Shown: piece after piece, positions 422 to 26,230 of the stretch
Position numbering within the stretch: the stretch's first letter is position 1
Layout of the letters: each line of letters opens with the position of its first letter
IMG/VR virus record: IMGVR_UViG_3300028591_000144
DNA: 33,480 nt
Strand: one strand, 5' to 3'
Source: a virus
Notes under the pieces: generated by a model
Told to the model about the DNA's origin: nothing
Database searches by the model: none
Seen by the model: only the letters and a program-made list of their open reading frames with translations
Program-made: the position numbers and the translations under genes

Positions 422-622
422 ATGAAAGCAATGAAAGTAAGAGTATGCGTGCAGGCATATGACCCTGCATGGTATGAGGAAGAAGTTGTCCTTGTGCATG
501 AATACAATGGCATGGACGTCAAAAGCGTCCTGCATGGCATTGAAGAATATCGCCGTGCGCAAGGTGACGGCGAAGGCGGTGTGGTGTTCGTTACCGCCTT
601 CGTAGAAAAGGGGGAAGAATAA
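422..622 (+). CDS. hypothetical small protein (66 aa)
   Basis: ORF track. SD AAAGGAAAG upstream. Follows a module-A leader hairpin gcagag/ctctgc. Confidence 0.55.
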   Translation: MKAMKVRVCVQAYDPAWYEEEVVLVHEYNGMDVKSVLHGIEEYRRAQGDGEGGVVFVTAFVEKGEE

Positions 623-826
623 ATGATAGTATTCTTTGCAATCGCTTTTGCAATAGTGAGCATTGTGTTCGCTATTGTGAGCGTGACAACAGCTACCTTG
701 ACCATTCAGATTGACGGCGAACGCACCGCCGTCTTTTACGGATGGAAAAGTTTCTGCTGGTACCGCAAGAACTGCGGTACAAAGCGGACACGCTACAGGT
801 TAATCAAAATTGAGGGGCTCTTTTGA
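623..826 (+). CDS. hypothetical protein with hydrophobic N-terminus (67 aa)
   Basis: ORF track. Start overlaps previous stop (TAAATG). Followed by terminator. Confidence 0.5.
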   Translation: MIVFFAIAFAIVSIVFAIVSVTTATLTIQIDGERTAVFYGWKSFCWYRKNCGTKRTRYRLIKIEGLF

Positions 827-839
827 GTCCCTCAGAACA

Positions 840-873
840 GACCTCGGAGAGAAAACTCCGAGGTCTTTTTTTT
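840..873 (+). terminator. rho-independent terminator
   Basis: gacctcggag-agaaaa-ctccgaggtc followed by T8. Confidence 0.8.
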
Positions 874-907
874 GCCTTACGATACCCCGACATAGCAAAT
901 CTATTCG

Positions 908-950
908 CCTGTCCCTGCTGGGATGGGTTGGGCCGCAATGCCTGCTGATT
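908..950 (+). repeat. Module-A G-triplet box copy 2
   Basis: gtccctgctgggatgggttgggccgcaatg. Confidence 0.7.
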
Positions 951-1043
951 TCAGTTACAAAAGTATTACGAAAAAAACAAAATCCTGGGCAACAAAAGCA
1001 AGTTGTGACTGTCAATTCCCGAAAGAAAAGAGTATGCCGCCAA

Positions 1044-1069
1044 AAGCCCCTAAAATAGGGGCTTTTTTT
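1044..1069 (+). terminator. module-A internal hairpin agcccct-aaaat-aggggct + T7
   Basis: Perfect 7-bp stem plus T-run, immediately upstream of the module promoter. Equivalent hairpin in every module-A copy. Confidence 0.6.
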
Positions 1070-1087
1070 AATATGTTGAAAAAAATA

Positions 1088-1116
1088 TTGCAAAAAAAAT
1101 TTTTTTGATATAAGTT
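1088..1116 (+). promoter_or_regulatory. module-A promoter TTGCAA-17-TAAGTT
   Basis: atattgcaaaaaaaatttttttgatataagtt. Same ATATTGCAA -35 context as second-half promoters. Hexamers read from sequence. Confidence 0.5.
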
Positions 1117-1206
1117 GTGATTGTCCTCAGCGAGAAACAAAAAAAACGGCACGCACCACCGCAAGGGCGTGAAACTCCGTAGGCTGTAGGACAGGAAGGA
1201 AAAACC
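1117..1206 (+). promoter_or_regulatory. conserved structured 5' leader (nested hairpins gtcctcagc/gctgtaggac and cacgc/gcgtg)
   Basis: Identical about 90-nt leader at 1117-1206, 3352-3442 and 5383-5461. Covarying variants elsewhere. Confidence 0.55.
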
Positions 1207-1599
1207 ATGAAGATCGAGAATTACAATCACTACAGCAGAAAGCAGGTCAACTATGGCCTGTGTGCAGGCCGTCACGATATGCCGGTTGATGAGTGCATCT
1301 TTGAGGATACACTTGATCCGACAGATTTTGACGGAATGACCCGTGTGGCCGCACGGGAATTGAAGCAGTACCGCGGCCGCAATATCCATCTGGTGGTGTA
1401 TGCCACCGGATTGACGGCCGCAATGATTGCGGTCATCAACGTTTGCGCCGCATGGCGCATTGACCTTACGGTCATGCACTATGACCGTGCAACGGGGGGC
1501 TATCTCCCCCAAACGGTCATTGAAAGGCCGTACTGCGTGTACTGCGGGGCTGAGTACCCGCTGAACGCGCAGGAATGCCCGGAGTGTCAGGCCACCTGA
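1207..1599 (+). CDS. hypothetical protein, C-terminal CxxC...CxxC zinc ribbon (130 aa), about 55 percent GC
   Basis: ORF track. SD GGAAGGAAAAACC. Motifs CVYC and CPEC at C-terminus. Confidence 0.65.
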   Translation: MKIENYNHYSRKQVNYGLCAGRHDMPVDECIFEDTLDPTDFDGMTRVAARELKQYRGRNIHLVVYATGLTAAMIAVINVCAAWRIDLTVMHYDRATGGYLPQTVIERPYCVYCGAEYPLNAQECPECQAT

Positions 1600-1610
1600 C
1601 ACTCCACAAA

Positions 1611-1637
1611 GGTAGACGGAACGCCTTAAAGACTCCG
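1611..1637 (+). promoter_or_regulatory. 27-nt intercistronic box B copy 1 (GGTAGACGGAACGCCTTAAAGACTCCG)
   Basis: Exact 27-mer directly after the stop codon and before the next SD. 12 copies in the window. Confidence 0.75.
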
Positions 1638-1662
1638 AAACATTTATATAGGAGGAAGAAAA

Positions 1663-1980
1663 ATGATGATTAAGACTTTCACGGGAGCGATTATCGCTTC
1701 TGTGAGCAGCCAAAATGAATGGGAGCGCAACCGGCTCCCGTTCATCGTGGAGTACCGCACTCAGGGCGTGCGAATTCTTCACGGGGCCGATAGCATGGAG
1801 CTGGCTCTGTACTGGGCTCGCTTCAATGCTGAAGCCCACGCCGCAAATGCGGCACCCGCGGCAACACTGTTCATTTATGAACAGAACCGCGGGAAAGACA
1901 AGCGGTTCAACCGCTGGTTGGTTGGTGCCGTCATGTATGATGGCGAAACGGTCAGCCAGTGGGTCGAGGGTCAGGAATAA
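1663..1980 (+). CDS. hypothetical protein (105 aa)
   Basis: ORF track. SD TAGGAGGAAG. Confidence 0.65.
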   Translation: MMIKTFTGAIIASVSSQNEWERNRLPFIVEYRTQGVRILHGADSMELALYWARFNAEAHAANAAPAATLFIYEQNRGKDKRFNRWLVGAVMYDGETVSQWVEGQE

Positions 1981-2002
1981 CATCCTGACCCTCTTTTTTT
2001 TT
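1965..2002 (+). terminator. rho-independent terminator
   Basis: gagggtcagga-ataaca-tcctgaccctc + T9. Confidence 0.85.
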
Positions 2003-2043
2003 GCCTTACGGCAAACCACGACTCACACAGCAAATCTATTCGC

Positions 2044-2085
2044 CTGCCCCTGCTGGGATGGGTCGGGCCGCAAGGAACGAATTTT
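2044..2085 (+). repeat. Module-A G-triplet box copy 3
   Basis: ctgcccctgctgggatgggtcgggccgcaagg. Confidence 0.7.
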
Positions 2086-2296
2086 ACAAAACAAAAGTAA
2101 CCGAAAAAACACAAAACAAAAGTGACAAAGCCAAGAGAGAAAGAAAAAATCCTGATAGTCGCATGCCACGTGCGCAAACCCCCTGTATTTACTGGACTTT
2201 TCAAGATATACGAAAAAAAATATTGAAAAAAAAATATTTTTGATATATAAAAGAATCACAACAGGCAAAAAGAAAAAACAGAAAGGGGAATGAAAT

Positions 2297-2686
2297 ATGA
2301 CTAACTGGCATGAAGTCCAGCAAGACTGGATAGGATATGAAATCAAAGATACTGATATCCCTATCCATGATTGGTGGGACCACGAAGACAGGACAACATA
2401 CATATATTGTCACGTGGCCCTCGGGACAGTTGTCTTTGTTGCTCCGGACCGTTACGGCAATGAAGACATTGCCACAGTGTTCACAAACACCGGTATAATC
2501 GGGGTTGTGAACGTCAAGACGTACAGGTTCTTGACAATGTACGTCACGTCTCAAAGTAAGCTGTTAGATGCTTACACGAGAGCACGTGGCAAGGGGAATG
2601 AACTCCCATTACCGCAAGAAACTCTTTTAGCGGTAAGAGAGTTATACAAGAATCCTGAGGCTCGAGTTAGATTGGAAATGACCTGA
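2297..2686 (+). CDS. hypothetical protein (129 aa)
   Basis: ORF track. SD AAAGGGGAATGAAAT. Confidence 0.6.
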   Translation: MTNWHEVQQDWIGYEIKDTDIPIHDWWDHEDRTTYIYCHVALGTVVFVAPDRYGNEDIATVFTNTGIIGVVNVKTYRFLTMYVTSQSKLLDAYTRARGKGNELPLPQETLLAVRELYKNPEARVRLEMT

Positions 2687-2696
2687 GCTTCGCCCC

Positions 2697-2718
2697 AAGG
2701 GGACGGGGTAAAGTCCCC
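2697..2718 (+). promoter_or_regulatory. intercistronic hairpin ggggac-GGGGTAAA-gtcccc
   Basis: Stem-loop with the GGGGTAAA loop also found at 4553-4572 and 5839-5858. Confidence 0.45.
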
Positions 2719-2747
2719 ACTAAATAACAAAGAAAGGATATGAAAAC

Positions 2748-2933
2748 ATGGCTGAAAAACCCACCCTGTATTTCGTTATGTGCTTGGAATACAAGCACAA
2801 AGATGGAACCATCACAAAGGATATGACCCTTGCGATGGTCAATGACGAAGAGTTGGCGAACAAGAATGCGCTTCTCTGGCAGAATGAACCGGAGTGCATT
2901 GGCGACATTGTTGTCCGCCCAGTAAAGTCTTAA
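2748..2933 (+). CDS. hypothetical protein (61 aa)
   Basis: ORF track. SD AAAGGAT. Confidence 0.55.
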   Translation: MAEKPTLYFVMCLEYKHKDGTITKDMTLAMVNDEELANKNALLWQNEPECIGDIVVRPVKS

Positions 2934-2941
2934 ACACTGAA

Positions 2942-2968
2942 GGTAGACGGAACGCCTTAAAGACTCCG
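2942..2968 (+). promoter_or_regulatory. box B copy 2
   Basis: Exact 27-mer. Confidence 0.75.
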
Positions 2969-2995
2969 ATACTTTAAAAGAAAGGAGAACGAAAA

Positions 2996-3079
2996 ATGCA
3001 AACTGTTATCGCAATTGCCGCGATTATTATCGCAAGTATCATCTTCTGCATCGCACATCTCTACAACATGATGCAATAA
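2996..3079 (+). CDS. small hydrophobic peptide (27 aa, MQTVIAIAAIIIASIIFCIAHLYNMMQ)
   Basis: SD AAAGGAGAA 8 nt upstream. Single predicted TM helix. Followed by hairpin. Confidence 0.5.
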   Translation: MQTVIAIAAIIIASIIFCIAHLYNMMQ

Positions 3080-3146
3080 GACCCACTGGGCCTCTTGGAA
3101 AGAGAATCCAAGAGGCCCAAAGAAAAACAAAAGTACTATACTTCGA

Positions 3147-3190
3147 TGCGCCGTGCTGGGTAGGGCTGGGTCGCAAATATCGAATTTAAC
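3147..3190 (+). repeat. Module-A G-triplet box copy 4
   Basis: gcgccgtgctgggtagggctgggtcgcaaatatcgaattt. Confidence 0.7.
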
Positions 3191-3442
3191 AAATAACAAA
3201 TAAGCGAAAAAGACAAAAACAAATTAAGCTAATCCAAAAGAGGAAAGAAAATTCCTATAATTAAAATGCTAGGCGCAAAGAGCCCCTATTTATTGGGGTT
3301 TTCAAGATATACGAAAAAAATATTGCAAAAAAAATTTTTTTGATATAAGTTGTAATTGTCCTCAGCAAGAAACAAAAAAACGGCACGCACCACCGCAAGG
3401 GCGTGAAACTCCGTAGGCTGTAGGACAGAAAGGAAGTACACC

Positions 3443-3709
3443 ATGATTACTATTTTAATTTGGCTCTGCAATGTCCTCGATAAGAGCTTACTGGTACACA
3501 ACTCCAATGTATCTGTCATGATCCCGACAAGCATTGGCATTTGTGAGGTTCGTCTGGACGCCTGGGTTGATTCCCTTGGCGCTACGCAAGAGCGCCTTTG
3601 GGTAATCTTTGATTATCTGGACGGGTCCGATGCGGATACCGCCAGCTTCACTAATAGAAATGTTGCAAAAGCATTCATTAGTGAATTACTCGAAATCGCA
3701 AATCACTAA
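3443..3709 (+). CDS. hypothetical protein (88 aa)
   Basis: ORF track. Conserved leader plus SD AAAGGAAG. Confidence 0.6.
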   Translation: MITILIWLCNVLDKSLLVHNSNVSVMIPTSIGICEVRLDAWVDSLGATQERLWVIFDYLDGSDADTASFTNRNVAKAFISELLEIANH

Positions 3710-3769
3710 ACTCAATAACGGGGTTGAACTTCTCTAAGAGGTTCAACCTCCATAAAAAGGAGATGTGAT

Positions 3770-4060
3770 ATGAAATATTTTATCCTCGGCGTCCAAGGTA
3801 ATCCAAAACATGGTATCGCCTATTCTGTATACACTTACCGCCGCGCGATGGAGCCGGCAAAAGCTAAAATTGAATGGGATAAGGTAAAAAATCGCAAAGA
3901 TGGCCGAGTAAAGTGCTATCTTGTTCCTGAAGATAAGATTGATCAATTCTATGAAAAAGTAGCTGAGATTAATCAGCGTATGCATAAAGAGTTAGAAACT
4001 CGTAAACGTGGTATAGAACTTCATAACTACGCTATAATGATGTACAATAATATGACCTGA
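3770..4060 (+). CDS. hypothetical basic protein (96 aa)
   Basis: ORF track. SD AAAGGAGATG. Preceded by intercistronic hairpin ggttgaac/gttcaacc. Confidence 0.65.
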   Translation: MKYFILGVQGNPKHGIAYSVYTYRRAMEPAKAKIEWDKVKNRKDGRVKCYLVPEDKIDQFYEKVAEINQRMHKELETRKRGIELHNYAIMMYNNMT

Positions 4061-4090
4061 GAGAGCACATCCCTCAGGTCATATTCCTTC

Positions 4091-4130
4091 GCACCGTGCT
4101 GGGAAGGGTGGGGTCACAAAACTCCGAATT
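4091..4130 (+). repeat. Module-A G-triplet box copy 5
   Basis: gcaccgtgctgggaagggtggggtcacaaaactccgaatt. Confidence 0.7.
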
Positions 4131-4354
4131 CAATAAAACAAAGATACGGTAAAAATACAAAAACAAAAGTTATTAATCTTTGATATAACTGAAAATTCCT
4201 ATATCTCTTTATATCCTTCTCAAACCCCTTGTATTTACTGGGCTTTTCAAGATCTTAAAAAAAAAATATTGCAAAAAAAATATTTTTAATATAAGTTGAA
4301 ATCGTACTCAGCCACAAACAAAAAAATTGCTGAGACAGAAAGTGAGATTCCAGC

Positions 4355-4540
4355 ATGGTTACTATCTATCTTTTCACCGCAGACACCAAGCAGGTCGGTA
4401 TCTATGAGCACTTTCAGGACGTAGGAAGTGCGTTTGACTTCGTCCGTGTTAAGTTCCTGCGGATGCTTCCCGGAGCTTTTGCCTGGCTCGTTTCTGAGGA
4501 TACTGGCGAGCTCCTCAAGGAAATCGACCTCAAGGCCTAA
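4355..4540 (+). CDS. hypothetical protein (61 aa)
   Basis: ORF track. Weak SD. Leader hairpin actcagc/gctgaga. Confidence 0.45.
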   Translation: MVTIYLFTADTKQVGIYEHFQDVGSAFDFVRVKFLRMLPGAFAWLVSEDTGELLKEIDLKA

Positions 4541-4552
4541 TCCTAAGCCCTG

Positions 4553-4572
4553 CCGGCGGGGTAAAACACCGG
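4553..4572 (+). promoter_or_regulatory. intercistronic hairpin ccgg-CGGGGTAAAACA-ccgg (box P)
   Basis: Same box precedes the paralog at 5898. Confidence 0.45.
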
Positions 4573-4612
4573 CAAAATCTAATAAATATTTTTAAAAAGG
4601 AGTTTAAACATT

Positions 4613-4837
4613 ATGGCAAAACGTAGAGTCTATTTCGAATCCGGCGAAATCGTTGAAGCAACTTGCGGCAAGAGCCAATTCAAGCAGATCATCAAGACCC
4701 ATTCTGAACCTGGCATGCGGATGTGGTTCCGGGACTGCCCTGAGTGGCGTCAAACCTATACGAATTGGAATAAGTGGTTCTTTGGATACTGGAAAAACGA
4801 GGACGGAATCCTCTGCCTCCAGAGATTCAAAAAATAA
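4613..4837 (+). CDS. hypothetical protein (74 aa), paralog of 5898-6122
   Basis: ORF track. SD AAAGGAG. Confidence 0.65.
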   Translation: MAKRRVYFESGEIVEATCGKSQFKQIIKTHSEPGMRMWFRDCPEWRQTYTNWNKWFFGYWKNEDGILCLQRFKK

Positions 4838-4847
4838 CTTAAAGATA

Positions 4848-4874
4848 GGTAGACGGAACGCCTTAAAGACTCCG
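4848..4874 (+). promoter_or_regulatory. box B copy 3
   Basis: Exact 27-mer. Confidence 0.75.
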
Positions 4875-4902
4875 TAATTTTAAAATAAAAAGAGGTGAAA
4901 AT

Positions 4903-5121
4903 ATGACTCTGAAAGAGATGGATCTTATTGCAATAGCAATGGACGATCCTAACTATAAATTTAAAACTGTAGGTACTCCATTAATTTTAAGATACAATAG
5001 CTATGGAGATACTACAAAGGTATATCATACTAATGATATACAAAGTGCAATAAAAGATTTCCGTATGACAACTTACAGTATTCAATATGGTACTCATCGA
5101 GGATATAGAGGGCTTATTTAA
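4903..5121 (+). CDS. hypothetical protein (72 aa), AT-rich
   Basis: ORF track. SD AAGAGGTGA. Confidence 0.6.
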   Translation: MTLKEMDLIAIAMDDPNYKFKTVGTPLILRYNSYGDTTKVYHTNDIQSAIKDFRMTTYSIQYGTHRGYRGLI

Positions 5122-5141
5122 GCCCTCTATTTTCTTCTTTT
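5108..5141 (+). terminator. rho-independent terminator
   Basis: agagggcttatttaagccctct followed by T-rich run. Confidence 0.7.
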
Positions 5142-5167
5142 GGTATAATACTTATATATATTTTTAA

Positions 5168-5212
5168 CGCACAGTGCTGGGTAGGGATGGGTCGCAAATA
5201 TCGAATTTGACA
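5168..5212 (+). repeat. Module-A G-triplet box copy 6
   Basis: cgcacagtgctgggtagggatgggtcgcaaatatcgaattt. Confidence 0.7.
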
Positions 5213-5461
5213 AAATAAAAATAACGCAAAAATACAAAAACAAAACTGATTAAACCAAAAGAAGAAGAAAAAATCCTATAATTTTTGATTAACTTGCATG
5301 AAGCCCCTAAATGCAAGGTTTTTAAAGATTTTTCAAAAAAAATATTGCAAAAAAAATTTTTTTGATATAAGTTGTAATTGTCCTCAGCAAGAAACAAAAA
5401 AAACGGCACGCACCGCAAGGGCGTGAAACTCCGTAGGCTGTAGGATAGAAAGGATTCCACT

Positions 5462-5827
5462 ATGTTGTACTACGCTTTTATTAATCTCTCTGACTCCTGC
5501 GTTATCCGCCTGCCGGATACTTATTCCAGCGTCATTTCCGCTTGCGGGGCTATTAACCGCTTTATTGATGCCAATGACAAGATTCACAGCGCCCTTGTCG
5601 TTAGCAAGACTGATGTGAAAGTCATGGTGGCTATGGACAGTGACGGCGGTCTTCTGATTGATCACATTCCTGCTGAAGAGTGGGAAACCCACTCTGTTGA
5701 AGAGTTCTATGGCGCACAAAAGACCATTCGAAAGGTAGGTGATACAATGTTCGGTTGCTATTATGAGGGCGATGTGTGCATTGCCCTTGTGAATCTCCAG
5801 ACTGGTGAGTATATCCCCGTGGAGTAA
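5462..5827 (+). CDS. hypothetical protein (121 aa)
   Basis: ORF track. Conserved leader. Confidence 0.6.
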   Translation: MLYYAFINLSDSCVIRLPDTYSSVISACGAINRFIDANDKIHSALVVSKTDVKVMVAMDSDGGLLIDHIPAEEWETHSVEEFYGAQKTIRKVGDTMFGCYYEGDVCIALVNLQTGEYIPVE

Positions 5828-5897
5828 TCCACAGCCCTGCCGGTGGGGCAAAACACCGGCACAATATAAAAAAAATTTTTTTGAAAGGAAGCAAAAA

Positions 5898-6122
5898 ATG
5901 AAAAAACGTAGAGTTTATTTCGAAGATGGTGAAATCGTTGAAGTAATGAGCGGGAAAGCTCACTTCAAAAGAGTGGTAAAAAATCATTCTGAACCCGACA
6001 TGCGGATGTGGTTCCGGGACTGCCCTGAGTGACGTCGAGCTCACGCAAACTGCGATAAGTGGCTCTTTGGATACTGGAAAAATGATGATGGAATCCTCTG
6101 CATCCAGAGATTCAAAAAATAA
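5898..6122 (+). pseudogene. paralog of 4613-4837 interrupted by in-frame TGA at 6030-6032
   Basis: The TGA sits at a codon that is TGG (Trp) in the paralog. The downstream 29 codons remain in frame and conserved (KW-FGYWKN-DGILC-QRFKK). Indicates recent nonsense mutation or programmed readthrough. Confidence 0.6.
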
Positions 6123-6131
6123 ATCTTGCGA

Positions 6132-6158
6132 GGTAGCCGGAACGCCTTAAAGACTCCG
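6132..6158 (+). promoter_or_regulatory. box B copy 4 (GGTAGCCGG variant)
   Basis: One substitution relative to consensus. Confidence 0.7.
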
Positions 6159-6194
6159 TAATATTTAAAAATTTAAAAAAAGGAGATTATTACT

Positions 6195-6359
6195 ATGATT
6201 CTAAAAGTTAATCCTGCTGAGATCTATGAAGATCTCAAAGTCGTAAAGGCTAAAATGGACGAATTTCTTCCTGGGACCTGGGAAGCGCACTATCTCCAGC
6301 GCTGGGCTGAAGCTCTCGAATTTCTTGAAGATGCCTATGGCGCACAGGAGGAGTGGTAA
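6195..6359 (+). CDS. hypothetical protein (54 aa, MILKVNPAEIYEDLKV...)
   Basis: Manual ORF, below track cutoff. SD AAAGGAGATT. Confidence 0.55.
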   Translation: MILKVNPAEIYEDLKVVKAKMDEFLPGTWEAHYLQRWAEALEFLEDAYGAQEEW

Positions 6360-6370
6360 AACACTCCTCG

Positions 6371-6397
6371 GGTAGACGGAACGCCTAAAAGACTCCG
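6371..6397 (+). promoter_or_regulatory. box B copy 5 (CCTAAAAG variant)
   Basis: One substitution relative to consensus. Confidence 0.7.
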
Positions 6398-6424
6398 AAT
6401 AATAAAAATAAAAGGAGATAGTGG

Positions 6425-6472
6425 ATGTTAACTATTATCATCTTCATGATTCTTGGATCGTTATTTGACTAA
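6425..6472 (+). CDS. tiny hydrophobic peptide MLTIIIFMILGSLFD (15 aa)
   Basis: SD AAGGAGATAG. Conserved in 3 copies (also 10447 and 12094), each followed by a terminator. Confidence 0.55.
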   Translation: MLTIIIFMILGSLFD

Positions 6473-6477
6473 TAATT

Positions 6478-6510
6478 AAAGGAAGGGTAAATCCCTTCCT
6501 TTTTTTTTTG
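6478..6510 (+). terminator. rho-independent terminator
   Basis: ggaagggtaaatcccttcc + T10. Confidence 0.85.
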
Positions 6511-6548
6511 ATAAATGAAAATCTACAATATTACTTTATATATTTCAA

Positions 6549-6590
6549 CCGCACGTGCTGGGTAGGGCTGGGCAGCAAAAGCCGAGTTTT
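6549..6590 (+). repeat. Module-A G-triplet box copy 7 (canonical CCGCACGTGCTGGGTAGGGCTGGGCAGCAAAAGCCGAG)
   Basis: Identical to copies 8 and 9. Confidence 0.75.
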
Positions 6591-6860
6591 CAATAATAAA
6601 AGTAAGCAAAAAACACAAAAACAAAAGCGATAATCCCAAGAGTAAAGATAAAATTCCTATAATTAAAACGCTCTGTATAAAAAGCCCTTATTTATTGGGC
6701 TTTTCAACATATGCTAAAAAAAATATTGCAAAAAAAATTTTTTTGATATAAGTTGTGATTGTCAGCGAGAAAACCGTTGTTAACATAGCAAGCAAGTAAG
6801 CAGACAAGTTGTGGTTTAATCAGTATTAAAAATTATTATTGAAAGGATTTTTTCCGCACT

Positions 6861-7328
6861 ATGAAAATTACTTCTATCTCTCAACTTATTGAAGCTCTGT
6901 ATGCTATCCTTGCGATTCTTGACTCTATCTTTCGTGACCCCGTAGATACTGAAGCCATTAGCGATTACGTATACGAAAACGTCTTGGAAGCTTTGCGTAA
7001 ACAGCGCAAACAGTATATTTATACTGAATCTCCTTATCAGGTTATAGAGGATTTTGATGCTGATGATAGCAATAGCATTAAAATTGATGGCAAAAGACAT
7101 TTCTTCCCTGCCTATTATCAAGAGCAACTTCATTTCCTGAATTGGTTTTACTCAGATAAACGGCACTATGAATTTGATCAGGATATTCGAAAAGCAGAGA
7201 ACATCTCTAAAGATGTTGACGAATGTCTTGAAGCTCTTAACCGTGTAATTGCTGGCGACTTAAATGATGAGATTTATGAAATCATTGGCAAGTTAAACGA
7301 CTTGCGAGATAAATATAATCTCAAATAA
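6861..7328 (+). CDS. hypothetical protein (155 aa)
   Basis: ORF track. SD GAAAGGAT. Confidence 0.65.
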   Translation: MKITSISQLIEALYAILAILDSIFRDPVDTEAISDYVYENVLEALRKQRKQYIYTESPYQVIEDFDADDSNSIKIDGKRHFFPAYYQEQLHFLNWFYSDKRHYEFDQDIRKAENISKDVDECLEALNRVIAGDLNDEIYEIIGKLNDLRDKYNLK

Positions 7329-7336
7329 TTGCTAAA

Positions 7337-7363
7337 GGTAGACGGAACGCCTTAAAGACTCCG
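7337..7363 (+). promoter_or_regulatory. box B copy 6
   Basis: Exact 27-mer. Confidence 0.75.
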
Positions 7364-7402
7364 CAACTTATAAAATACATTTTTGAAAGGACTTTTCTCA
7401 TC

Positions 7403-7726
7403 ATGTTTGAAAACATCAATAAGCACTCCGCTGGTTTCTTCGCTGTTGACATCGCTAATCTTGCCACTAAAGTGGGGGCCTTGTATGAAACTGCCAAAGC
7501 CCATTATGATGAAGTGTACACCGCCCATCCCGATGACTCCGATGATGAAGCCTTTGACCTTTGGTACGATGAGCAGGATGAAGCTTTTGAGTCTTATGAA
7601 ACCTTTTCTCAGCTTGTAGACTTGATCGATGATATCAAAGAGTTGAATGTCGACAGCTGGGAAGAGCTTAGTGCAAAACTCGATCTTCTGGCTGACGCTG
7701 TCGAAAGCTTAGGTTTAGACGATTAA
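7403..7726 (+). CDS. highly acidic small protein (107 aa), DNA-mimic-like composition
   Basis: ORF track. SD GAAAGGAC. D/E-rich. Confidence 0.65.
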   Translation: MFENINKHSAGFFAVDIANLATKVGALYETAKAHYDEVYTAHPDDSDDEAFDLWYDEQDEAFESYETFSQLVDLIDDIKELNVDSWEELSAKLDLLADAVESLGLDD

Positions 7727-7734
7727 CTCTAACA

Positions 7735-7761
7735 GGTAGACGGAACGCCTTAAAGACTCCG
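7735..7761 (+). promoter_or_regulatory. box B copy 7
   Basis: Exact 27-mer. Confidence 0.75.
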
Positions 7762-7800
7762 CAATTTTATAAAATACATTTTTGAAAGGATTCTCTTATT

Positions 7801-7989
7801 ATGACAACTAAAACTTTTATCTTTATTGTAGGCGATCATGAATTCATTAGCAATGAGCCTTTTGGCCCTATGTTTAAAGAGGCTCGCCAGCTTGCTAATG
7901 ACCTCAGTCTTCCTCTTTATAGAAAGAAGATTGAAGAATCTTTAGATGAATACCATCCCCAGTCAGGCTTCTTTACTGCCGTAAAATAG
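7801..7989 (+). CDS. hypothetical protein (62 aa)
   Basis: ORF track. SD GAAAGGAT. Confidence 0.6.
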   Translation: MTTKTFIFIVGDHEFISNEPFGPMFKEARQLANDLSLPLYRKKIEESLDEYHPQSGFFTAVK

Positions 7990-7998
7990 AGAACTAAA

Positions 7999-8025
7999 GG
8001 TAGCCGGAACGCCTTAAAGACTCCG
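7999..8025 (+). promoter_or_regulatory. box B copy 8 (GGTAGCCGG variant)
   Basis: One substitution relative to consensus. Confidence 0.7.
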
Positions 8026-8064
8026 CAATTTTATAAAATACATTTTTGAAAGGAAGTAAACAAA

Positions 8065-15662: not shown

Positions 15663-15720
15663 TTTCATTTATGTAAAAATGTACTAAAAATCCAGGACAA
15701 ATATTGTGCATTTTACCATA

Positions 15721-15749
15721 TTGCATTTTTTCCTAATATATGGTAATAT
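15721..15749 (+). promoter_or_regulatory. sigma70-type promoter TTGCAT-17-TAATAT/TATAAT
   Basis: Hexamers read from sequence. Confidence 0.6.
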
Positions 15750-15782
15750 AATACCAAGAGATGAGAGGGGGGAGACCACTTA

Positions 15783-15935
15783 ATGAAAAAATTTATGTTC
15801 TATAATCATGAAGATGGTAATTGCTATTACGTCGTAGCTCAAAAGATAGAATATGCCTATGACATTATGTGTGATTATTTTGGTACTGAATATTTTGCCT
15901 GCTCATTTACTTATGAAGGAGAGATTGACAGATGA
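15783..15935 (+). CDS. hypothetical protein (50 aa)
   Basis: SD GAGGGGGGAG. Manual ORF. Confidence 0.5.
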   Translation: MKKFMFYNHEDGNCYYVVAQKIEYAYDIMCDYFGTEYFACSFTYEGEIDR

Positions 15936-25847: not shown

Positions 25848-26135
25848 CGTTCCAAGGGAAATGCACTTAATCCTTGAGAACAGTGTGAATGGACAATACA
25901 CTTGACTTCGAACACACTATAATCAAAAGAAGATAGTGTTGACTTTGGGACTTTTACCAGTTTATATTTTTGTTTCAAAAGGCAAACAAAGGGAGAATAA
26001 ACTGGCGCTCGGCAGGCGTTTAGTGCAAAACTGCCTGCCGATGTGTGAAATGCGCTTACCAAAAAAATAGAAAAAAAGATTAAAAAAATTGGAAAAACGC
26101 ACTTAACTTTTGTTTTTAATAATCATATAGAAAGT
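25848..26135 (+). ncRNA. candidate non-coding RNA locus (family 2, copy 1), upstream of tRNA-like gene
   Basis: Own promoter and no credible ORF. Starts ATAATCGTTCCAAGGGAAA. Contains stem-loop ggcaggc...gcctgcc. Homologous start at 27401. Confidence 0.45.
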
Positions 26136-26214
26136 GAGAAGAACCTTTGACAGGCAAAGGTCACTGTTCGAGTCAGTAAAGTGGTCACGATGGGTTCAAC
26201 TCCCATTCTTCTCA
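26136..26214 (+). tRNA. tRNA-like gene, best fit anticodon CGA (Ser). 79 nt, no encoded CCA
   Basis: Cloverleaf folded by hand. Perfect 7-bp acceptor gagaaga/tcttctc. D-arm cttt-gacaggc-aaag. Anticodon loop TTCGAGT (U33, R37). T-arm atggg-TTCAACT-cccat. Variable arm of 11 nt is atypical for Ser. Confidence 0.55.
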
Positions 26215-26230
26215 AAAAACAAAAAGATAC

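Follow-up and report, generated by a model that had tools for sequence, protein, structure and literature searches.

We found that the second copy of a duplicated 74-codon gene in a rumen phage carries what is very probably a nonsense allele, a TGG-to-TGA change private to one lineage and located in a redundant paralog. The sequence analyzed is a 33,480-nucleotide stretch of viral DNA (IMG/VR record IMGVR_UViG_3300028591_000144), referred to here as the window. In the mechanism that we propose, a single G-to-A change would have turned the TGG of the conserved Trp45 into TGA in one strain, and release factor 2 would then terminate translation at codon 45 and release a 44-residue fragment, with copy 1 covering the function. 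The loss would be tolerated because an intact paralog lies 1.3 kb upstream and because phages of this group can dispense with the copy-2 slot. The downstream frame would still be intact because the mutation is recent. In addition, the 3′ half of copy 2, especially codons 46 to 56, would have been imported from a divergent family member shaped by purifying selection, so that the codons after the stop look “conserved in frame.”

The duplicated gene and its interrupted second copy

The features of the two copies are as follows, with the hairpins and the ribosome-binding site identified by reading the sequence.

4538..4915, plus strand: first copy of the duplicated segment (upstream hairpin, gene, and 21-nt motif)
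4551-4574: hairpin 5′ of copy 1, counterpart of the one at copy 2
4613..4837, plus strand: copy 1, the intact 74-aa paralog (protein P0001), able to cover the function
4854-4874: 21-nt motif after copy 1, with equal spacing
5825..6207, plus strand: second copy of the duplicated segment, which holds the interrupted gene
5838..5861, plus strand: hairpin 5′ of copy 2, TGCCGG-12 nt-CCGGCA
5885-5891: ribosome-binding site AAGGAAG after the copy-2 hairpin
5898..6122, plus strand: copy 2 of the 74-codon gene family, interrupted at codon 45 (sequence and synteny)
5898..6032, plus strand: 44-residue ORF under standard decoding (protein P0013)
6030..6032, plus strand: in-frame TGA for TGG (Trp45), a single G-to-A transition (ortholog comparison)
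6033..6065, plus strand: divergent tract, codons 46 to 56, differing from the ortholog at 10 of 33 nt
6066..6122, plus strand: in-frame 3′ remainder, codons 57 to 74 and TAA, with 2 nt differences from the ortholog
6138..6158, plus strand: 21-nt intercistronic motif CGGAACGCCTTAAAGACTCCG, 16 nt 3′ of the full-length TAA

Copy 1 runs from the ATG at 4613 to the TAA at 4837 and encodes MAKRRVYFESGEIVEATCGKSQFKQIIKTHSEPGMRMWFRDCPEWRQTYTNWNKWFFGYWKNEDGILCLQRFKK. Copy 2 begins with the ATG at 5898, and its premature stop is followed by 29 in-frame codons (RRAHANCDKWLFGYWKNDDGILCIQRFKK) and the TAA at 6120-6122. The preliminary description of this DNA had placed a TGA at a conserved Trp codon in copy 2, and both the sequence and the translations of the two copies agree with it, coordinates included. 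It had also described the frame as intact and conserved up to the terminal KK-TAA. The 29 in-frame codons and the shared TAA are as described, but the sequence directly after the stop is a divergent mosaic tract. The peptide encoded after the stop is identical at 20 of 29 positions to the paralog and at 25 of 29 to the syntenic ortholog. By themselves, 29 open codons are unremarkable; the remarkable part is the amino acid conservation together with the preserved gene cassette.

The two segments (4538-4915 and 5825-6207) are 78.8 % identical and share the upstream hairpin, the ribosome-binding site, and the 21-nt motif 16 nt past the TAA. Since the spacing of the motif after the TAA is equal in both copies, the cassette is organized around a 74-codon ORF. 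Reinitiation producing a C-terminal piece was rejected, because on reading the sequence we found no in-frame ATG, GTG, or TTG 3′ of the copy-2 stop. Overlapping ORFs in other frames or on the other strand were also rejected, their conservation being absent between copies 1 and 2.

The motif CGGAACGCCTTAAAGACTCCG occurs 12 times in the window compared to 0 expected (21 nt each on the plus strand, starting at 1617, 2948, 4854, 6138, 6377, 7343, 7741, 8005, 8963, 10097, 10392, and 11246). It always lies closely 3′ of a stop codon and 25 to 40 nt 5′ of the next start, and it contains an ACGGA/TCCGT stem with a 13-nt loop. Rfam gave no family anywhere in the window and no match to the motif. We regard it as a candidate element for intercistronic processing or regulation. 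Separately, some 10 copies of a 200- to 250-bp intergenic module, 73 to 85 % identical, split the first 11 kb into small gene groups (approximately 157-359, 909-1112, 2048-2247, 3151-3380, 4090-4326, 5145-5403, 6528-6772, 8313-8562, 9416-9669, and 10524-10777). These modules are probably repeated promoter/leader units. The assemblies of relatives tend to break near this region of repeated modules.

The TGA is present in two separate assemblies, the window and contig k141_3027199 of ENA ERZ27256846 (L001/L002), and an assembly artifact is therefore unlikely. The two sequences are 99.944 % identical over 15,999 nt and differ in 9 alignment columns, nearly all within poly-A runs. They represent the same strain, separately assembled, and add no evolutionary depth. 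Being nearly identical, the two contigs could stem from related or identical samples, which leaves some room for a sequencing or assembly error at the TGA. We consider such an error scarcely credible, however, because the TGA and all 12 substitutions of the tract are the same in both assemblies, and because a single miscall in a unique, nonhomopolymer stretch is unlikely at assembly coverage.

The gene family and the copy-2 position in relatives

Neither copy had a match in Pfam or PHROGs. A search of 5.8 billion proteins returned one cluster of 12 distinct 74-residue proteins, all traced to metagenome assemblies of cattle or rumen type. With a profile search of 1.84 billion representatives, we gained 22 remote homologs of 49 to 138 aa (including P0014-P0034), in which only the N-terminal ~50 residues are shared and the tails are unrelated. 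The alignment of 21 remote homologs has G11, W38, and F39 invariant and M1 and W45 at least 90 % conserved. Trp45 is invariant in all 12 family proteins and is among the five best-conserved columns of the wider alignment. Judged from these alignments, the stop replaces one of the best-conserved residues in an uncharacterized small-protein family. The ~50-residue core of the wider family has the consensus M-KR-AYF--G-IIE---GK--FKR ... RVWFRPC-AW, with variable C termini. No similar DNA was found in GenBank phages, and the conserved 23-mer of the family gave nothing in scans of IMG/VR and JGI metagenomes.

Five contigs, drawn from at least four samples (L003, L004, L005, L006, and L007), carry intact syntenic orthologs of copy 2: the same position, preceded by a 121-aa gene and followed by a 54-aa gene, holds an intact copy with TGG. 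Codon 45 is TGG in all 20 other family copies, including these five orthologs, on 16 related rumen-phage contigs. Among the copies recovered, the TGA allele is limited to the window and L001/L002. The stop, which programmed readthrough would lead one to find conserved among relatives, is conserved in none of them. What we see instead is a single-step change, TGG to TGA, confined to one lineage, as would be expected of a nonsense allele. The preliminary description had connected TGG in other isolates with a simple recent nonsense mutation, and TGG is what the five syntenic orthologs and the genes of the 12 distinct family proteins carry.

The gene is also redundant and its slot dispensable, as a nonsense allele would again require: the window has an intact paralog, and what occupies the copy-2 slot varies among relatives. 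In L008-L011, there is a single hybrid copy with a copy-1-like N terminus and a copy-2-like C terminus (L008:3001-3225), and in L014 the slot holds an unrelated 103-aa gene (L014:1658-1969). Copy 2 of the window has private changes at four columns that are invariant in 21 other copies, namely, G34D, W45*, F56L, and E63D. G34D, F56L, and E63D are conservative, there is no second lesion, and dN/dS is low. Counting against a nonsense allele, the downstream part has no second stop, indel, or decay and keeps its low dN/dS. This lack of visible decay is accounted for by the recency of the mutation and by the origin of the downstream tract.

We also considered whether the 44-residue product could be a functional short isoform, given that conservation in the wider family is concentrated in an N-terminal core, with C termini that vary. 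Among the remote homologs, similarity is limited to roughly the first 50 residues, and the shortest homolog ends 4 residues past Trp45. However, every homolog keeps the Trp45 position and at least 4 more residues, and in the structure model helix 2 begins with Trp45 and two of the five strands come from the missing part. P0013 has neither helix 2 nor the final two beta strands of this predicted fold. G34D, moreover, affects an invariant glycine in copy 2. We regard a functional short isoform as extremely unlikely. According to the model, the 44-residue fragment, without Trp45, helix 2, and the C-terminal beta hairpin, is probably inactive.

The tract downstream of the stop

Compared to the L003 ortholog, copy 2 has 2 differences in the 132 nt that precede the stop and 12 in the 90 nt that follow it (Fisher p = 5e-4), and 10 of the 12 downstream differences lie in codons 46 to 56. 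In these codons, synonymous sites are saturated while the amino acids are mostly retained. By the Nei-Gojobori method, the region after the stop has 7.5 synonymous changes over 14.8 sites and 4.5 nonsynonymous changes over 72.2 sites (pS 0.51, pN 0.06, pN/pS ~0.12), a signal that comes from one TGA haplotype and can originate from the donor of the tract. Eight of the 12 changes after the stop are at third positions (p = 0.02). Neutral drift after pseudogenization was rejected as the source of the tract (p = 2e-4), nonsynonymous changes being far too few. The substitutions show no adenine specificity, and mutagenesis of the diversity-generating retroelement type was rejected on that ground.

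Divergence along the region is patchy, and several family proteins are visibly recombinant (e.g., P0002, P0007, and P0011). In the other “KAHANC”-type members, codons 45 to 52 are nucleotide-identical even with saturation elsewhere in the gene. Across the family, codons 35 to 52 (4715-4768 and 6000-6053 in the window; L003-L018) are near-identical in nucleotide sequence despite saturated synonymous sites elsewhere, and the sole exception is copy 2 of the window. This near-identity suggests frequent gene conversion or a constraint at the nucleotide level. These patterns lead us to infer that a more divergent, functional family member outside the sampled set donated the 3′ part of copy 2 through recombination or gene conversion. 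A second copy of the tract was not found in the window at up to 3 mismatches, and neither the window nor any of the loci contained a third family member. Collection scans for the donor returned only chance matches in high-GC bacteria and one unrelated Prevotella contig, and the tract with TGG was found in no collection scanned.

Codons 45 to 50 differ from the ortholog at consecutive third positions (TGG>TGA, CGC>CGT, AAG>CGA, GCC>GCT, CAT>CAC, and GCG>GCA). The TGA is the first of these six changes and therefore, against the main reading, resembles part of the imported constrained tract rather than a later independent hit. The substitutions after the TGA also create two adjacent 6-bp palindromes, GACGTC and GAGCTC (6031-6042), which are unique in the window.

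One way to read this arrangement is that the TGA lies within an imported patch of codons 45 to 56 and was silent in a donor that reads TGA as Trp, leaving the window with a recombination “scar” between genetic codes. We think this highly unlikely. If it were true that the patch came from such a relative, it would be direct evidence of phage gene flow across genetic-code boundaries, and the scar would lie inside a TAG-recoding clade or mark the first step of a second reassignment. More simply than by a code-4 donor, the pattern could be explained by a point mutation that occurred at the edge of the conversion tract or became fixed along with it.

Decoding of TGA and comparison with known systems

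Readings in which TGA is decoded as Trp were examined against the use of this codon in the window and its relatives. TGA terminates 7 of the 32 other genes called in the region (33 on L002), at positions common to L003, and the 33 early genes contain 68 TGG codons versus one in-frame TGA. A simple gene call across the window gave 64 TAA, 13 TGA, and 1 TAG stops, the TGA count probably including the premature stop; about one in five window genes ends in TGA. The TGA-terminated ORFs listed in the preliminary description (ends at 1599, 2686, 4060, and 12078) are correct. Late genes of relatives likewise end in TGA (4 of 15 in L022 and 4 of 13 in L023) and hold 0 in-frame TGA versus 100 TGG codons. 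A comparison of the code-4 translation of the window with proteins from relatives brought up no further credible in-frame TGA.

A suspected second truncated gene at 15762-15935 was a false alarm, as the call in the relative uses a different upstream ATG. The 75-aa call of the relative, corresponding to the window region 15700-15935, is an upstream-ATG artifact, and a near-consensus sigma-70-type promoter (TTGCAT, spacer of ~17 to 19 nt, TATAAT) lies 5′ of the 50-aa gene at 15783-15935.

The coding density of the window is 0.54 under code 11 versus 0.52 under code 4. Recoding of TGA, TAG, or TAA in the window was rejected, as it opened no long consistent ORFs. Many in-frame TGAs, avoidance of TGA as a terminator, and a gain in density would mark a code-4 genome, and none of these was found. 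ARAGORN detected no tRNA(UCA) in the window, which is 33 kb of a genome likely >200 kb, and no tRNAs in ten related loci that include all loci of >5 kb. The sole tRNA of the window, at 26135-26215, is a tRNA-Ser (CGA) and not a suppressor.

The relatives do recode another stop codon. L006, which carries both family copies, has minus-strand neighbors (a YonG-like gene and others) with in-frame TAGs. Four of its late genes (L006:250-3227, minus strand) hold 23 in-frame TAG codons and no in-frame TGA or TAA, and its MazE-like gene holds 1 further in-frame TAG. In L022, a contig of the same sample as L003, 15 genes (L022:1288-13916) contain 61 in-frame TAG, 0 TGA, 0 TAA, and 49 TGG codons. L023 is the end of a 240.6-kb contig with a YonG-like protein about 80 % identical, and it has 41 in-frame TAG, 0 TGA, and 0 TAA codons at 552-12283. 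Where TAG stood opposite a non-TAG codon in the partner, that codon was CAA or CAG in 23 of 37 cases. By these codon alignments, the close relatives are TAG=Gln (code 15) phages. From contigs of 215 to 247 kb, they are probably jumbo phages, and they carry SPbeta-like YonB/YonD/YonG genes.

Many in-frame, Gln-aligned TAGs were found in the relatives only. The window has small plus-strand genes only, with no ORF of >201 codons under any of four codes, and its real genes have no in-frame TAG. TAG is strongly depleted: there are 252 TAG trinucleotides versus 910 TGA, and a single ORF of 78 ends in TAG. The GC content is about 0.5 at the left end and decreases to about 0.3 in midwindow. The window looks like an early region compatible with the standard code, and recoded large phages have been described with such an early region (bioRxiv 10.1101/2021.08.26.457843). 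The only TAG-ended window gene is at 7801-7989. If TAG is read as Gln late in infection, this gene would gain ~20 residues through the 21-nt motif, up to the TGA at 8047-8049. The rest of the genome to which the window belongs probably needs code 15 for gene calling. Because the same relatives terminate late genes at TGA, TAG recoding leaves the TGA in copy 2 unexplained. Genome-wide recoding had been called unlikely in the preliminary description; this is right for TGA, but the TAG-to-Gln recoding of the relatives was missed.

True decoding of the copy-2 TGA as Trp would call for an opal suppressor outside the window or for a codon 45 to 56 patch from a TGA=Trp relative. The TGA behaves like a synonymous change at the head of the six third-position differences, and the relatives already recode TAG to Gln. 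Large gut phage clades, cattle phages included, mix codes 11, 15, and 4 at >90 % ANI, and a suppressor tRNA is detectable in only about 35 % of code-4 genomes (bioRxiv 10.1101/2021.08.26.457843). Against this, the late genes of three relatives have 125 in-frame TAG and 0 TGA codons with TGA in use as a terminator, as it also is in the window. In part of a larger gene that adjoins the window on its right in the same sample, 273 codons contain no in-frame stop. Searches of the 5.8 billion and the 1.84 billion proteins and of three DNA collections turned up neither a code-4 family member nor a second copy of the tract. We therefore hold decoding as Trp to be very unlikely.

Selected leaky readthrough is a different proposal, in which the UGA-C would be kept to set a low level of full-length copy 2, with tRNA-Trp inserting the native residue. 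The 29 intact downstream codons with their low dN/dS, the spacing to the 21-nt motif that suits a 74-codon ORF, and the fact that the residue restored would be exactly the conserved Trp45 are all in keeping with it. In E. coli reporters, a premature TGA was the leakiest stop and, by mass spectrometry, was almost always decoded by insertion of Trp (PMC11126739). The base directly 3′ of the copy-2 stop is C, which gives a UGA-C context. This context is reportedly the weakest in E. coli (Poole, Brown and Tate 1995). However, the C is merely the first base of the conserved Arg46 codon and is present in all TGG copies; it is not an acquired signal. The stop occurs in no relative and so has not been retained in evolution, the intact paralog already supplies the protein, and the low dN/dS can be inherited from the tract donor. 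A stimulatory 3′ context or structure was likewise not found: the 80 nt from just 5′ of the stop form no stable RNA structure (MFE of −13.4 kcal/mol, z = +0.68 versus shuffles). Selected readthrough is thus unlikely in our view.

The preliminary description had left three options undecided. Taken together, these data favor the first, a recent nonsense mutation. Programmed readthrough has no support, there being neither the stop in any relative nor a stimulatory RNA structure, and neither has TGA-to-Trp decoding, as TGA terminates early and late genes, code 4 brings no gain in density, and no suppressor tRNA was found in the window or in the related loci scanned. With a nonsense allele, a few percent of ribosomes may still read the UGA-C via tRNA-Trp and restore the wild-type residue. 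Through such background leakiness and no programmed mechanism, the allele may be a hypomorph rather than a null.

Several known systems resemble copy 2 in part. In Qbeta, readthrough of a UGA yields the minor coat protein A1, and there the stop is fixed and the extension essential. Copy 2 is like coat/A1 in having a UGA, Trp as the inserted residue, and an in-frame extension. Unlike in Qbeta, its stop is missing in all relatives and interrupts a domain instead of separating a core from an extension. Code-4 gut phages such as Agate and Jade share with it a TGA at a Trp position, a cattle phage, and a labile code in the group (bioRxiv 10.1101/2021.08.26.457843). In code-4 phages, in-frame TGAs are numerous and lie mainly in late and lysis genes (bioRxiv 10.1101/2021.08.26.457843), whereas there are none in 28 late genes of the relatives, where TGA is still a terminator. 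The large code-15 phages (crAss-like, Lak, Agate, and others) are matched by the dozens of TAGs aligned to CAA/CAG in the late genes of the relatives and by an early region compatible with the standard code. This likeness concerns TAG and not the copy-2 TGA, for which it is context and no explanation.

The closest likeness in our reading is to phage nonsense alleles and nascent pseudogenes, with a one-step change in one strain, an intact paralog, and a variable copy number. Unlike in ordinary nascent pseudogenes, the stop adjoins a short recombinant tract with saturated synonymous differences, and unlike in a decaying pseudogene, the downstream frame of copy 2 has a signature of purifying selection. 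A nonsense allele in a redundant gene is already known in kind, and one in a spare paralog is of small importance. It does carry a caution, which is that a conserved open frame past a stop can arise from recency and a recombinant tract without recoding.
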